A stretch of 64,000 nt of DNA, taken from the NCBI GenBank assembly GCA_963770895.1, contig CAVYRF010000002.1, forward strand, positions 704,001-768,000. Direction: 5' to 3'. Shown piece by piece: positions 57,514-63,208 of this stretch. Source of the stretch: an uncultured Acidobacteriota bacterium (lineage in GTDB: Bacteria > Acidobacteriota > Thermoanaerobaculia > Multivoradales > UBA5704). The position numbers and the translations under genes were made by a program. Position 1 is the stretch's first letter. Every line of letters starts with the position of its first letter. A model generated the notes under the pieces. The model was not told the DNA's origin and made no database searches. It saw only the letters and a program-made list of their open reading frames with translations.

Positions 57514-58281
57514 TCATCGCGCCCCCGTTGCGGGCGCCGCGTTGGTTTGCAGCGCTTTTCGTTTGCGCATCGATTCCTTGGTGCTGAGAGGCAGCTGGTA
57601 GGCGTTGTGCACCAGCCGATCGAGCACCGCGTCGGCCAGTGTCGCGTCGCCGATGGCGTCGTGCCAGGCGGCCACCGGCAGCTGGCTCGTCACCACCGTC
57701 GAGCGGCGGCCGTATCGGTCCTCGAGGATCTCGAGCAGATCGCGCCTCTGGACGTCGGTGAGTGGGTGCAAGGCCCAGTCGTCGAGCACCAGCAGGTCGG
57801 CGCGGGCCAGCGCCGCAAGCAGTTTGCCGTAGCGGCCGTCGGCTTTGGCCAGGCCGAGGTCCGGCAGCAGCCTCGGCAGCCGGTGATAGAGCACCGAAAA
57901 TCCTTCGCGGCATGCTTTCTGCGCCAAGGCGCAGGCCAGGTAGCTTTTGCCGCTGCCGGTCGGCCCGGTGATCAAGACGTTGAGATGCTCGGCGATCCAT
58001 TGGCACGAGCACAGAGCTGCAAACAGCGCCCGGTCCAGCCCGCGCGGCGTGCGCAGGTCCACGTCCTCGATCGCCGCGGCCTGCCCGAGCCGCGCTTTGT
58101 CGAGCCGCATCTTGAGCCGTCGGTTCTCCCGTTCCGTCAGCTCGCGGTCGACCAGCAGCCCCAGCCGTTCCGCGAAGCTCAGCTCTTCGATGCCGGACAG
58201 CGCCTGTTGCTCTTCGAGGGCCTTCGCCATGCCGGTCAGCCGCAGCGCCTGCAGCTTGTCGAGTGTCGGATGGCTCAGCAT
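57514..58281 (-). CDS. istB: IS21 helper ATPase
   Basis: [30 protein letters not shown]. Confidence 0.93.
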
Positions 58282-59088
58282 GGCGGCAGTTCCTCGCCGG
58301 CGCCGCTGCCGTAGTAGCTGGCTCCGCGCAGGTTCTCGTGCTGGGGCAGGCGCGCCGACGGCTCGCCTGCCGGCGGTTCCGCCTGCCGGTCCAGTCCGGT
58401 CTCCAGAATCGAACGCACACTGCGGTACGACAGGGCGCCGGCGGCCAACGCCCGCGCACAGGCCGCGGCCAGCCGTTCCCCGCCGTACCGCTCGCCCAAC
58501 CGCATGATGCCCAAGCAGGTGCGGAAACCCTGCTGGGCGTGGATCCGCGTCGCCAGAATCGCCTCGACCAACGCCGCGACGGACGGGCCGCTGCTCTGCG
58601 CCCACTGCACCAGCCGGTGCGGCGTCCACGCGGCGTAGTCACGGTGCGCTCGCGGCATGTGTCCGCCCTGGGTGGTGTGCCCTGCACGGCGGAAGCTGCG
58701 CAGATGGCTTGCCACTCGCCGCCCGCGCACGAAGACTTCCACGGTCTTGGCGGTCAGCCGCGCCTCCACCGCCTGGCCCACCAGTTGGTACGGCACGCTG
58801 TAATAGTGGCCTTCGATCTCGACGTGATAGTCGATGTGCACCCGCGCCTTCTTCCACTCCGCATAGACGAACCGCTCGGCCGGCAGCGCGCGCAGCGCCG
58901 GCCGCTCCAGGCTCTCGAACTGCGATCGCCGGCAGCCGGGCAGTTTGCGAAACGGCCGCTCGTTGAGCCGGCTCAGCAGCTCGCGGATCGCCGTGTTGAG
59001 CTCGCCAAGCGAGAAAAACTGCCGGTGCCGCAGACGCGCCAGGATCCAGCGCTCGACCACCTGCACGCCGACCTCGACTTTGGCCTTG
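58275..59088 (-). pseudogene. istA: istA 3' half
   Basis: [12 protein letters not shown]...YYSVPY...[10 protein letters not shown]. Confidence 0.88.
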
Positions 59089-59122
59089 GAGAAGGCAGTC
59101 AACTACAGCAGCTTCAACAGAT

Positions 59123-59395
59123 GTGCGGCCGCTTGTTCGAGTGACACACCCGTTCCATCCCTTGTCTGGTTGCGAGTTCGAACTGGTGGAGTACAAGCAG
59201 GCGTGGGGCGAGGATCGCGTCTACTTCCTCGATGATAAGGGCCGGCTTCACCACATGCCCATCGGATGGACCAACGTTGCGCCGCTGGACCCATTCCGGG
59301 TGATGGCGGCCGGCCAGAGCCGGTTCAGGACGGAGGATCTCCTGCGGCTGGCTAACCTCATTACCCAACTTAAAGACGAAGCAAGAGTAAAGTAA
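59123..59395 (+). CDS. DUF5372 / Y4bD-like small protein
   Basis: VTHPFHPL.G..F, WGEDRV, P..WT, DPF, DLL.L. Confidence 0.75.
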   Translation: MRPLVRVTHPFHPLSGCEFELVEYKQAWGEDRVYFLDDKGRLHHMPIGWTNVAPLDPFRVMAAGQSRFRTEDLLRLANLITQLKDEARVK

Positions 59396-59511
59396 ATTAT
59401 GCCGCTAGTGTCAAGGGAACTATGCCGCCGCACTCGGTTTCAAAACGCATAGGCGTGCCCAGAGAAAGCACAGCAATCTCCGTAGATTACGTAGTTGCGC
59501 GTCGCGGGGGC

Positions 59512-59540
59512 TTGACTGTGCTCTAGATAGACGGCATAAT
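59512..59540 (+). promoter_or_regulatory. Sigma70-like promoter of the recombinase operon
   Basis: TTGACT-17-CATAAT upstream of GGAG and ATG 59568. Confidence 0.7.
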
Positions 59541-59567
59541 TCCTCTTACACATGTTGGAGATCACTG

Positions 59568-60035
59568 ATGCCAGACCGCAAGCCCTCCGATCCGAAGCTC
59601 GCCGCCTTGCGGGAGCGCCGGACCCTCAACCCGCGGCCGGAGCGCGTCACCGACGAGCTCTTCGCACGGTCGGACTTCTTCGATCCAAGAGATCTTCTCC
59701 AGGTCAAGTACGAGATGATCCGGCGTGCGCAGGTCGACGAGGCGCCTGTCGCCGAAGCGGCAGAGGCTTTCGGCTTCTCGCGGCCCTCGTTCTACAAGGC
59801 GCGCGACGCCTTCGCCGACGGCGGGCTCGCTGGCCTCTTGCCACGCAGGCGCGGGCCGCGAGAGGCTCATAAGCTCAGCCCGGACGTGATGGCCTTTATT
59901 GAAGAGCAGCGGGGGGCCGACCTCTCGCTCACCGCGGCGGCGCTCGTGCCCCTGGTCAAGGAACGCTTCGGTGTTGAGGTTCATCCCCGCAGCATCGAGC
60001 GTGCGCTGCGTCGGCTGGAAAAAAAACGACGGTGA
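59568..60035 (+). CDS. HTH protein of the recombinase element
   Basis: FFDPRDLLQVKYEM, FGFSRPSFY, GP..AHKL, VHPRSIERAL. Confidence 0.8.
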   Translation: MPDRKPSDPKLAALRERRTLNPRPERVTDELFARSDFFDPRDLLQVKYEMIRRAQVDEAPVAEAAEAFGFSRPSFYKARDAFADGGLAGLLPRRRGPREAHKLSPDVMAFIEEQRGADLSLTAAALVPLVKERFGVEVHPRSIERALRRLEKKRR

Positions 60036-60343
60036 CCTCCGTGTCCGACTCTGTCATGGCGGGAGCGCAAGATGCCCTGATCGCTGGCTACGAGGATCTC
60101 CGGCGTAGCGCGCTCGGTCGTCTTGCCGGGTCAAGTCGTGAGGTTGGATGGGGATTGTTCATCCGCAGTGGCATGGCCGCCTGGATGGAGAGGTGCGCGG
60201 CGCTGATCAGGCCGTCCGAGGCGGGGGCTCGGCGATCAGCCGCGGAGCCATCTTTCATGCCACAGGACTTCCGAGTCGAAGTGGCCATGCTCCTTGCCGA
60301 AATGGCTCTGTCGGCTTACGCCCCGAGAGGAGTGACGACATGA
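60032..60343 (+). CDS. Small hypothetical protein of the recombinase element
   Basis: YEDLR, G.GLF...GMAAW; 4-nt overlaps on both sides. Confidence 0.7.
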   Translation: MTSVSDSVMAGAQDALIAGYEDLRRSALGRLAGSSREVGWGLFIRSGMAAWMERCAALIRPSEAGARRSAAEPSFMPQDFRVEVAMLLAEMALSAYAPRGVTT

Positions 60344-62421
60344 TGGGCAACGAAGCGCACCAGAAGGTCACGGCCCGACACCTTAAGCGAAACGCCTACC
60401 TCTACATCCGGCAGTCCACGCTGCGACAGGTCTTCGAGAACACCGAAAGTACCGATCGCCAGTACGCCCTGAGGCAGCGAGCGGTAGCGCTAGGTTGGGC
60501 CCAGGAGCAGATCATCATCATTGACTGCGACCAGGGGCAGTCGGGCGCGTCGGCGGAGCGACGCGACGGCTTCCAGAGACTTGTCGCCGATGTCGGCATG
60601 GGACGCGCGGGAATCGTGATGGGGCTCGAGGTGTCGCGGCTGGCGCGGAACTCCTCCGACTGGCATCGGCTCCTCGAGATCTCTGCGCTCAGCGACACGC
60701 TCATCCTCGACGAAGATGGCGTCTATGACCCCGCGCACTTCAACGACCGCCTTCTGCTTGGCCTCAAGGGCACCATGAGCGAGGCGGAGCTGCACGTGCT
60801 GCGGGCGCGACTACGGGGCGGCATCCTCAACAAGGCGCGCCGCGGCGAGCTTGAGTCGCCACTTCCCATTGGCTTCCGTTACGACGCTCAACAGCGCGTT
60901 ATTCTCGATCCTGACAAGCAGGTGCAGGAGACGATCCGCACCTTCTTCCAGATTTTCCGCCGCACAGGTTCGGCGACCGGAACGATGAAGGCCTTCCGCG
61001 CACAGGGACTCCGGTTTCCTCACCGCGTGCGGACGGGGCCGGCCAAAGGTGAGGTGATCTGGGGAGATCTGCAGCATTCCCGTGCCCTCTGGGTGCTGCA
61101 CAATCCGCGATTTGCCGGAGCCTTCTTCTTTGGCCGTAGTCGACAACGCCACTATGGGAATCGCAGCGGCACGTTTGAGAGGTTGCCGCGGGAGGAGTGG
61201 ACCGCACTCATCCGCGATTCGCACCCAGGCTACATCACCTGGGACGAGTTCGAGGAAAACCAGCGACGCCTGCGCGAGAACTCGCAAGCCCAAGGCAGCG
61301 AACGCCGCAAGAGCCCTCCCCGAGAAGGGCCAGCACTCCTCCAGGGTTTGGTGATCTGCGGTGTCTGCGGTGAACGGATGACGGTCCGTTACAACCACAG
61401 CTACGGCAAGCGCCTAACTGTCTACACCTGCCAGCGACAAGGCATCGAGCGCGGCGAACCCTTATGCCAGAGCATCTCGGGCACCCACATCGATGCGGCG
61501 GTCGGGCGCCTCCTCGTCGAAGCCATGACGCCGATGGCTCTCGAGGCCACGCTGACGGTTCAGCAGCAGCTTCAGTCGCGCGCCGATGAAGCGGAGCGGC
61601 TATGGTCTCGACAGGTCGAGCGCGCTCGTTATGAGGCGGACCTGGCACGCCGGCGTTTCATGCAGGTCGATCCCGATAATCGTCTGGTGGCTGACGAACT
61701 CGAGGCTGACTGGAACCGGAAGCTGCGGACGCTCACCAGTGCTCAGGAAGAGTATGAGCGACGGCGGAAAGCCGAGACAATAGTTATCGATGAAGCGCAA
61801 CGCTCGCGCATCCTCGCCCTCGCTACGGATCTGACGAAGCTCTGGTACGAGCCAACGACGACGGATCGCGACCGCAAACGGATGGTCAGGCTTCTCATCG
61901 AAGATGTAACACTCAGCAGAGGAACACAGATCACGGCGCAGATTCGCTTCCGCGGTGGCGCAACCACGACACTGGGCCTCCCGCCCGCGTTGCGAGTTTG
62001 GGAGATCTCTCAAACCAGCAAGGAGGTGGTGGCGGAAATCGACAGGTTGCTCGACCATCATACCGACAAACAGATCGCAGCCATCCTCAACCAACAAGCT
62101 TTCCGGTCAGGCAGTGGCAAGAACTTCAAGCCGGTATTCGTCTATCGAATCCGCTTGGAATACAAGCTCCGGAGCCGATACGATCGTCTTCGGGCGGCGG
62201 GTATGATGGACATCACGCAGATCGCCAAGCGGCTCAACGTCACTCCCTGCACGATCAAGCTCTGGCGCCGCGCGGGCCTGCTCAAGGCCCATGCATACAA
62301 CGACAAGGGCCAGCACCTTTTTGAGCTTCCAGGTGCCGACCGGCCTATCAAATTCAAACACAAGCCGCAGCCCTTGCGGCCCACGGTGCGGCACGCAAGT
62401 CGCACCGATTCCAACGGATGA
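60340..62421 (+). CDS. Large serine recombinase (resolvase + recombinase + Zn ribbon)
   Basis: YIRQST, DQGQSG, SRLARN, LLLGLKGTMSEAE, CGVCG, VDPDNRLVA. Confidence 0.92.
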   Translation: MMGNEAHQKVTARHLKRNAYLYIRQSTLRQVFENTESTDRQYALRQRAVALGWAQEQIIIIDCDQGQSGASAERRDGFQRLVADVGMGRAGIVMGLEVSRLARNSSDWHRLLEISALSDTLILDEDGVYDPAHFNDRLLLGLKGTMSEAELHVLRARLRGGILNKARRGELESPLPIGFRYDAQQRVILDPDKQVQETIRTFFQIFRRTGSATGTMKAFRAQGLRFPHRVRTGPAKGEVIWGDLQHSRALWVLHNPRFAGAFFFGRSRQRHYGNRSGTFERLPREEWTALIRDSHPGYITWDEFEENQRRLRENSQAQGSERRKSPPREGPALLQGLVICGVCGERMTVRYNHSYGKRLTVYTCQRQGIERGEPLCQSISGTHIDAAVGRLLVEAMTPMALEATLTVQQQLQSRADEAERLWSRQVERARYEADLARRRFMQVDPDNRLVADELEADWNRKLRTLTSAQEEYERRRKAETIVIDEAQRSRILALATDLTKLWYEPTTTDRDRKRMVRLLIEDVTLSRGTQITAQIRFRGGATTTLGLPPALRVWEISQTSKEVVAEIDRLLDHHTDKQIAAILNQQAFRSGSGKNFKPVFVYRIRLEYKLRSRYDRLRAAGMMDITQIAKRLNVTPCTIKLWRRAGLLKAHAYNDKGQHLFELPGADRPIKFKHKPQPLRPTVRHASRTDSNG

Positions 62422-62446
62422 GGTGCAGTATGAAGCGCAGCCTTTG

Positions 62447-63208
62447 TCCCGCGGTTTGCGCACCCGCGCCGGCAGCACCGCCACACCGTAGTGCTGCGCC
62501 AGCTCCTGATAGGTCCGGTTCGATCTCCGGCTCGTACCGGCACGCCTTGCTCACGCCCGACCGCAGATTGTCGATCACTACGGTTTCCGGCACACCGCCG
62601 CTGAACTCGAAGGCCCGCACGTGCGAGCCCAGCCAGTCCGGCAGCCCCTGCGTCCAGGTCGCCTCCGCGAACGTGTGGTTGCTGGCGCCCCACACTGCCA
62701 CGAACACCTGCGCCTCGCTCACCACGCCGGTCGCTGCATCGATCACCGGCACCGTCTTGCCGCAATAGTCGACGAACAGAGCCTCGCCGGCGCGGTGCAC
62801 CTGCCGCATCGTCACATCGGCCCGCCGCCGCCATCTCTGGTAGAGCTCGCAGTAGCGGCTATATCTGTACCCTTGTGGTTCCTGCTCTTGATACTCCTCC
62901 CACAGCAGCTGCAGCGTCACACCTTTCCCTTTGAGCTCTTGGTGCACCGTAGCCCAGTCCACCGACGCCCGCTGCGCGGCCGGCACCGCCTCCGGCGGCG
63001 GGTACAGCCGCCGCTCCAACTCGTCGTCGCTCAGCGGCTGCGCTTCAGACCAGCTCAACCCACTGCGGCGCGCCCGCGCGCCGCACTCCGCTACCGCCGT
63101 CTTGCTCGACCCGCAGCAGGCCGCCGCTTGGCGCTGGCTCAGCCCGCAGACCATCAGCAAACGCAGGATCTCTCGAATCTTCCTCATGCTCACTCTCCGT
63201 GCTGGCAT
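62447..63208 (-). pseudogene. istA: istA 5' half (also an extra base near 62521)
   Basis: MRKIREILRL, LLWEEY, FVDY, DNLRSGV; frameshift at EPEI/NRTY. Confidence 0.88.

Follow-up and report, generated by a model that had tools for sequence, protein, structure and literature searches.

We analysed a 64,000-nucleotide (nt) stretch of DNA from an uncultured Acidobacteriota bacterium (contig CAVYRF010000002.1, positions 704,001 to 768,000; hereafter the window). It carries a compact mobile element, about 3.36 kb long and free of cargo, that its own large serine recombinase (LSR) probably moves by crossing over at a 2-bp core, TT. The element includes a gene for a protein of the DUF5372 family, and in the integrated element the start signals of this gene sit at one end and the gene body at the other. 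We consider it likely that the attachment site of the element (attP) divides the gene of a cofactor, that the gene is rebuilt when the ends meet on an excised circle, and that its product binds the recombinase to give a complex that is competent for integration.

A gene divided between the two ends of the element

At the right end of the integrated element a Shine-Dalgarno (SD) sequence, GAGG, is followed by a 6-nt spacer and by an ATG at 62430, from which it is 14 nt to a TT dinucleotide (Table 1). The left end also begins at TT, the second T of which opens a TGG codon (59087-59089); from there the DUF5372 frame is open up to a GTG at 59123 and further. Joining the ends at TT leads from ATG 62430 across the core to GTG 59123 in 51 nt, or 17 codons, with no stop, and in the resulting DUF5372 frame the attP core falls between codons 5 and 6. 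An additional in-frame ATG at 62418 overlaps the stop codon of the recombinase gene (ATGA). We rejected it as the conserved start: the position of the recombinase stop shifts among relatives, and the start that is kept is the equivalent of 62430.

The borders of the element were fixed by comparing copies. The genome carries three, identical across the 3360-3361 nt matched and each in a different flank; two of the flanks are distinct IS21-type istA genes and one is another transposase-like gene. The sequence shared by the copies is bounded by TT at the left and TT at the right. As the copies are alike only between the two TTs, this dinucleotide is the crossover core, and a TTG core is excluded because the third copy ends in TTC on the right. 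A soil metagenome contig (run X4) holds the uninterrupted target, in which 59085 is joined straight to 62444, with 3358 nt skipped and 3 letters ambiguous. In the window the element lies antisense to the istA gene that it interrupts, which is on the minus strand with the genes of the element on the plus strand.

An original prediction, made from the letters of the window, had described these ends and their in-frame join, had proposed that the gene is split across attP, and had noted that GTG 59123 has no SD sequence in the integrated state. Inspection of both ends reproduces this description exactly, with the start signals on the right and codon 6 onward on the left. GTG 59123 does lack an SD sequence, and the host flank offers no in-frame start either before a stop is reached at 58997. 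The one correction concerns the shared core, which had been given as TTG and is TT; the join is unaffected.

Conservation of the split among relatives

DUF5372 was found in only 7 of 401 genomes of the same class that were searched for it. A species-level scan (one genome per species) yielded 499 relatives, of which the best 80 loci were analysed; these come from Acidobacteriota, Actinomycetota, Chloroflexota, Planctomycetota, Gemmatimonadota, Proteobacteria and other phyla. Together with the window copy and the relatives G285, G089 and G057 from the class sample they form a set of 84 entries, or 53 clusters at 70% amino-acid identity.

With up to 3 mismatches accepted, the right-end motif is present in 50 of the 84 entries (in 38 of the clusters), is missing from 21 despite enough sequence, and could not be sought in 13 that are too short downstream. 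A start codon stands at the fixed offset in every one of the 50 motif-bearing ends (ATG in 38, GTG in 12), and the first five codons are free of stops in all of them. An SD-like 4-mer precedes the start codon in 47, and TT follows it 14 nt later in 46.

Left arms were located with a position-weight scan over all offsets, and the 78 entries scoring at least 8 were used for the arm counts given below. The core is in frame with the THPFHP motif of DUF5372 in 81 of the 84 entries. The spacing between the two is 19 codons in 67 entries, 18 in nine, and 17, 20 and 21 in one each, with two low-scoring entries making up the remainder, and the length of the arm varies by whole codons only. Three arms are out of frame, and L072 is the only one of these with a high score. 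In L072 (5950-6010) the arm is off by one base and both the recombinase and the right end appear intact; a recent frameshift or a long-read assembly error could be responsible.

Both ends are defined in 47 loci, and in 46 of these the joined reading runs in frame and without a stop between the start codon and THPFHP. We repeated the analysis on an independent set of 80 metagenome loci. There, left arms are in frame in 72 of 72 cases, and the 30 right ends begin with ATG (19), GTG (10) or TTG (1), carry the TT in all but one (29/30) and give an open joined frame without exception (30/30). Continuity of the frame from SD sequence and ATG across homologous elements, which the original prediction had put forward as a test, is what these samples display. 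Its caution that a single in-frame fit has about a 1-in-3 chance of arising at random has been overtaken by the recurrence of the same geometry in the relatives and again in the metagenome loci.

Two genomes of the class sample have several copies of diverged relatives, and there the ends can be placed independently by comparing copies. The identity of three copies in G285 leaps to nearly 100% at a TG core, and in G089 three left ends part at one point, with one right end available. When the ends are joined by hand, both elements show the same ATG in frame into DUF5372, with a leader two codons shorter than that of the window.

DUF5372 in the integrated state

Between the core and the Thr codon of THPFHP, the start codons ATG, GTG and TTG are all absent in 36 of the 78 arms. 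In a further 21 the sole candidate start is the codon directly before this Thr. No arm contains an ATG, and only two arms have a candidate start with an SD-like site. To judge from these arms, integrated copies mostly lack a usable start, and expression of DUF5372 would be restricted to the circle. The split gene would also account for the truncated or arbitrary N-termini that annotation pipelines give to DUF5372 proteins.

One database protein, P0253, has the N-terminus predicted for the joined leader, with M-K-x-x-P placed exactly 24 residues upstream of the Thr in THPFHP. It could derive from a circle or a tandem copy, or be a chance match; in the two genomes with the closest element, where its source was sought, the copies are only 61% identical. 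Database proteins that start with M-x-W were also considered as junction forms and were rejected, as the ATG two codons before the Trp comes from N-A-F/Y-type target codons on the other strand. Such a fortuitous ATG, contributed by targets of the N-A-F/Y type, was noted in L083 and L089 and in the proteins P0036, P0063, P0085 and P0137; the count among the 78 loci is 2. The proteins P0049, P0038 and P0087 carry N-terminal extensions of other kinds.

Recombinase site and coding constraint within attP

Attachment sites of large serine recombinases are about 50 bp long and have imperfect dyad symmetry around a 2-bp crossover. The site of the element has this layout: GGTGCAGT on the right mirrors the left consensus ACTGCACC, each lies 14 nt from the core, the whole site measures 46 bp, and TT is found at both junctions of the three genomic copies. 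The two outer motifs are almost certainly the half-sites of the recombinase. In codons 5-8 of the left arm (usually S-T-T/A-A-P) it is the third position that is conserved and the second that varies, a codon pattern that reflects constraint at the level of DNA.

Other properties of the arms are those of coding sequence. Frame 0 contains no stop in any of the 78 left arms, compared with stops in 59 arms in frame +1 and in 64 in frame +2; in the variable stretch of the arm alone the corresponding counts are 0, 12 and 37. The three residues ahead of the Thr of THPFHP show protein-type conservation, with third positions free to vary. In addition, the right arm is more conserved than its mirror on the left: the GA that completes GAGG and the ATG or GTG are nearly invariant on the right, and the mirrored left-arm positions are variable. 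Given the stop-free frame 0, the whole-codon lengths, the protein-type residues before Thr and a GA and start codon conserved on the right arm only, a recombinase site by itself does not account for the arms.

The DUF5372 protein and its predicted contact with the recombinase

The DUF5372 gene product matches PF17342 with 85 bits (cut-off 25; E 3.7e-24) over model positions 1-77 of 78. In the predicted structure, for which the mean predicted local distance difference test (pLDDT) score is 80, a disordered N-terminus leads into an SH3-like barrel of five strands, accompanied by two helices. Fold searches returned generic SH3/KOW/Tudor-like matches only (best Foldseek E 6.8e-3, best VIA Z 5.8), and matches this generic do not allow a function to be read from the fold. 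The family itself is large: a profile search recovered 2407 cluster representatives at E <= 0.001 and 1187 at E <= 1e-10.

The recombinase (residues numbered from 60343) has the domain order of an LSR, with a catalytic serine motif in the resolvase domain and a recombinase domain followed by a zinc ribbon with a coiled coil. Its resolvase domain matches PF00239 (E 5.8e-19), and the Y-x-R-x-S motif (Y21, R23 and S25) is invariant in 33 aligned members. The next domains match PF07508 and PF13408, with cysteines 339, 342, 363 and 375 invariant in the aligned members, and the model places the coiled-coil helices at 397-441 and 447-478. The SPbeta integrase structure 9dxh aligns with a profile built from the family. 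That this enzyme may catalyse recombination between attP and attB is indicated indirectly, by the presence of three identical copies in different targets and by the empty site. Beyond the zinc ribbon there is an additional MerR-like helix-turn-helix (HTH) region (62200-62330, residues about 615-660), seen in weak Pfam matches and as model helices 597-643; this C-terminal region is kept across the family, members of which have 684-702 residues.

A model of the complex of DUF5372 with the recombinase scored 0.72 (predicted), compared with 0.17 for the best control. A score at this mark is reached by 58 of 80 solved complexes and by 2 of 110 mismatched pairs, counts that hold only roughly for the present model, as its alignments were built in this analysis. 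Runs agree in at least 80% of contacts, with a partner pLDDT of at least 71. The recombinase residues in contact, 338-343, 394-413 and 480-541, fall in the strands of the zinc ribbon, at the base of the coiled coil and in the latter half of the domain; the coiled-coil tip (442-446) is not among them. According to PMC12286644, the verified directionality factors examined there are predicted to bind at the junction of zinc ribbon and coiled coil, and the SPbeta factor was seen bound there. DUF5372 is thus predicted to dock on the recombinase at the site used by directionality factors. The original prediction had suggested a role in directionality or feedback, and this idea gains support from the modelled docking. 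DUF5372 resembles known directionality factors neither in sequence nor in any specific feature of its fold.

Proposed mechanism and alternatives

In the mechanism that we propose, attP lies within the 5' end of the element's own DUF5372 gene. Integration would take away the start of the gene, leaving the SD sequence, the start codon and five codons on the right end. A circle that carries attP is expected from the established chemistry of large serine recombinases. Excision to such a circle, or a tandem copy, would rebuild the full gene as the last, tightly coupled cistron of an operon of the HTH gene, open reading frame 3 (ORF3) and the recombinase gene. The protein would consist of a disordered leader of about 24 residues encoded by attP, then the SH3-like barrel and two helices, and would serve as a recombinase-binding cofactor at the junction of zinc ribbon and coiled coil. 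Recombinase made from the circle would always be made together with DUF5372, and since integration is the reaction that the LSR would carry out on a circle, the complex should be competent for integration or promote it. Recombinase made from an integrated copy would lack DUF5372; by itself, or together with the HTH or ORF3 protein, it would have to be the form that excises. Integration would then cut the cofactor gene, ending the supply of DUF5372 and resetting the system. That the effect of DUF5372 is on integration is argued from this logic.

A stricter version treats DUF5372 as an inverse directionality factor: the recombinase would integrate when bound to DUF5372 and excise alone or with the HTH or ORF3 protein, and the gene split by attP would set the direction. 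We put this forward tentatively, as plausible but short of probable. If it is true, the element is a self-contained two-state switch set by gene topology, with no outside signal, in a widespread family that parasitises insertion sequences (IS).

Several observations weigh against a split cofactor gene that works from the circle. By chance, the host flank provides an in-frame start in 23 of the 78 loci, which is ATG in 11 and has an SD-like site ahead in 3. Among the 21 entries without the right-end motif, six have no recombinase match, and others are hit by further insertions, a contig end or the edge of the fetched stretch. Four motif-less entries have an intact recombinase and a diverged end, with GTG in place in one, TTG one codon later in another, and an ambiguous sequence in the other two. 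The matrix used to score left arms was trained on the in-frame class, and the right crossover is directly verified in this genome, G285 and G089, its place in single-copy loci being taken from the fixed-offset TT. As the outer motifs are almost certainly half-sites, part of the conservation of the start codon and of S-T-T/A-A-P would not be at the protein level. The circle junction was sought in assembled contigs of runs X1-X4 (of 20 runs), and no joint from right end back to left end was present; contigs drop rare forms, so this is uninformative either way. The joined form, in which DUF5372 would directly follow the right-end motif, occurs in 0 of the 80 metagenome loci, and in none of them does a recombinase gene precede DUF5372. 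No terminal overlaps, which would indicate circular contigs, were found among species-scan loci shorter than 9 kb. A solved complex of an integrase with its factor exists (SPbeta, 9dxd), and the structure model may remember its docking mode.

The complex model also suits a more conventional role. If DUF5372 were a classical directionality factor, required for excision and an inhibitor of integration, its rebuilding on the circle would give positive feedback, in which a first rare excision fills the cell with factor and drives a burst of excision of the other integrated copies. The predicted docking site is that of known factors, and the three copies in this genome could respond in trans. However, as most integrated copies lack a start codon, the first excision would have to happen without the factor. 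A classical directionality factor made only after excision would also be expected to block re-integration, a point that tells against the mechanism proposed above as well if DUF5372 behaves in the classical way. On the circle the gene adjoins or overlaps the recombinase stop and would be made with the recombinase, and by established factor behaviour the circle could not then re-integrate; that the cycle does run to completion is shown by the presence of three identical copies in different targets. We regard a classical factor as unlikely.

The integrated state can also be read differently, with DUF5372 translated there from an internal or non-canonical start (GTG 59123, or the Val before THPFHP) and the junction frame a by-product of attP. 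Gene callers begin 47 of 120 database homologues one residue ahead of HPFHP, within the conserved domain (V/M-THPFHP; two are M-HPFHP), the codon before Thr is GTG in 33 of the 78 loci, and the S-T-T/A-A-P codons are conserved as DNA. The same codon is GTC, GTA, GTT, ATC or ATA in the other 45, however, and an internal start leaves the scarcity of SD-like sites, the protein-style conservation of the three residues upstream of Thr, the whole-codon arm lengths, the never-interrupted frame 0 and the right-arm-only conservation of the GA and the start codon without a reason. It is quite unlikely in our view. It is very improbable, finally, that the circle-made protein has no role at the recombinase and is a regulator or sensor of the excised state, such as a repressor acting on the 59381-59554 repeats or a factor that holds the host back until the element has re-integrated. 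A generic SH3/KOW-like barrel without a specific match would suit such a role, as would conserved repeats that overlap the promoter of the operon, but the modelled complex does pass its controls, the site of contact is both specific and plausible, and in relatives the gene comes immediately after the recombinase stop or overlaps it. We therefore favour the attP-split cofactor gene, rebuilt on the circle.

Target choice, operon and other features

The element family appears to parasitise insertion sequences, lying antisense in their transposase genes. The flanks of the relatives, and those of the window copy (59070-59087 and 62444-62470), code on the other strand for the P-x-x-P-x-x-(K/N)-x-x-x-E region around the catalytic glutamate of DDE (rve-type) transposases from several IS families. 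The crossover falls in the K/N codon, with the Glu four codons further in 68 of the 78 loci, and the rejoined target of the window reads P-R-D-K-A-K-V-E in antisense. The elements disrupt IS transposase genes, which precise excision, if it occurs, would restore, a case of hyperparasitism among mobile elements. The left flank of L056 was considered as the right end of a second element and was rejected on reading as unrelated host sequence. A scan of viral contigs gave a single locus, and the family is on this evidence not phage-borne. Related elements have no cargo and are of uniformly small size, with 3.3-3.4 kb between the two cores in most of them. In L037, L040, L043, L047, L057 and L086 the element is split by further insertions, mostly in the recombinase gene, so that mobile elements are nested in an element which is itself nested in an insertion sequence.

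The HTH gene, ORF3 and the recombinase gene are linked by 4-nt GTGA/ATGA overlaps of stop and start at 60032-60035 and 60340-60343, where the TGA of the HTH gene overlaps the GTG start of ORF3 and the TGA of ORF3 overlaps the recombinase ATG. A homologue of the HTH gene is present in 45 of 46 related elements. ORF3 has no match in Pfam, NCBIfam or PHROGs and has a homologue in 16 of 46 relatives (tblastn). Three repeat copies lie upstream of the HTH gene. They end in ATTATGCC/CTATGCC, and the inverted copy overlaps the -10 box of a promoter-like site. In homologue reading frames that read past the DUF5372 stop, the same letters appear as I-M-P-H-V-like tails, and the DNA motif seems conserved. 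The repeats and the promoter-like site are possibly the operator and promoter of the HTH-ORF3-recombinase operon.

Table 1. Features of the element and its flanks, in window positions (aa, amino acids).
Feature	Position	Strand	Remarks
istB	57514-58629	-	Pfam IstB_IS21
istA, C-terminal part	58275-59085	-	Pfam Mu-transpos_C_2
Crossover dinucleotide TT of the left junction (attL)	59086-59087		copies alike only inward of TT; join of the empty site
Mobile element (3358 bp)	59088-62445	genes +	DUF5372, HTH gene, small ORF, large serine recombinase
DUF5372 gene body	59087-59395	+	from core-spanning TGG codon to TAA stop; Pfam domain begins at 59141
Left-end inner attP arm	59088-59109	+	14-nt spacer, then outer 8-mer ACTACAGC; family consensus ACTGCACC
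Three copies of a 20-23-nt repeat	59381-59554		direct copies 59381-59403 and 59404-59426; inverted copy 59532-59554
Promoter-like site TTGACT-17-CATAAT	59512-59540		ahead of the HTH gene
HTH protein, 155 aa	59568-60035	+	Pfam HTH_32, HTH_28, HTH_29
Small ORF (ORF3), 103 aa	60032-60343	+	no known family
Large serine recombinase, 692 aa	60340-62421	+	ATG ATG at 60340/60343; Pfam Resolvase, Recombinase, Zn_ribbon_recom
Right-end attP arm	62418-62445	+	ATG 62418; GAGG 62420-62423; GGTGCAGT 62422-62429; ATG 62430; first five DUF5372 codons; TT 62444-62445
istA, N-terminal part (IS21 family, interrupted host target)	62446-63208	-	rve domain severed by the insertion

Comparison with known systems

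A full-text search for DUF5372 found no paper in the library searched, and searches on serine recombinases, attP, start codons, circular intermediates, transposase genes and nested insertion did not find the arrangement described. In the literature searched, the split DUF5372 gene, as a state-dependent control in a widespread family, thus has no described counterpart. Serine integrases are leading tools for the insertion of large DNA, and control of their direction is the main practical problem. The family may show a natural coupling of cofactor supply to recombination state, achieved through an attachment site that lies among the opening codons of the cofactor gene.

Among characterised proteins, DUF5372 can be compared with the directionality factors of large serine recombinases, such as SPbeta SprB and phiC31 gp3 (PMC12286644, PMC5814800), which are likewise small proteins with predicted binding at the zinc ribbon and the base of the coiled coil. 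Known factors are supplied in the integrated state of the element to trigger excision. They have to be available while the element is integrated, whereas DUF5372 has no start codon in that state: the window copy has neither an SD sequence nor a start in its flank, and the startless arms of the relatives agree.

Skin (SpoIVCA) and the fdxN element (XisF) are also serine-recombinase elements inside host genes, which their precise excision restores. XisF is the best NCBIfam match of the recombinase, at 99 bits, far below the 375-bit cut-off. Unlike skin and the fdxN element, the family described here interrupts IS transposase genes in many phyla, and is multi-copy and evidently mobile rather than a domesticated developmental switch. 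Retroregulation through sib in phage lambda is a further related idea. The int gene of ICEKp1 (PMC13023037) offers a parallel: it too is a recombination gene whose expression depends on whether the element is integrated or excised, and the difference favours integration. It differs in having a tyrosine integrase and a swap of promoters that acts on transcription, with no split coding sequence.

Two further systems share part of the arrangement. Tn4451 and Tn4453 are moved by an LSR, TnpX, and are reported to depend for gene expression on the joint of a circular intermediate. In work attributed to Lyras and Rood in 2000, this joint is said to make a promoter for the recombinase gene. The joint of the present element would instead complete a separate gene, by supplying its body with an SD sequence, a start codon and five codons, and attP lies inside the coding sequence. 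In phages of the BPs type, integration removes the 3' end of the repressor gene and yields a shorter protein that is active when integrated. The integration-dependent immunity of mycobacteriophage BPs and its relatives is similar to the system proposed here in that attP lies inside a reading frame of the element and integration alters the product (PMC4557955). DUF5372 has no match to a repressor family in Pfam, NCBIfam or PHROGs. Unlike the BPs repressor gene, the DUF5372 gene loses its 5' end, with all of its start signals, and should be silent when the element is integrated and complete only when it is excised.

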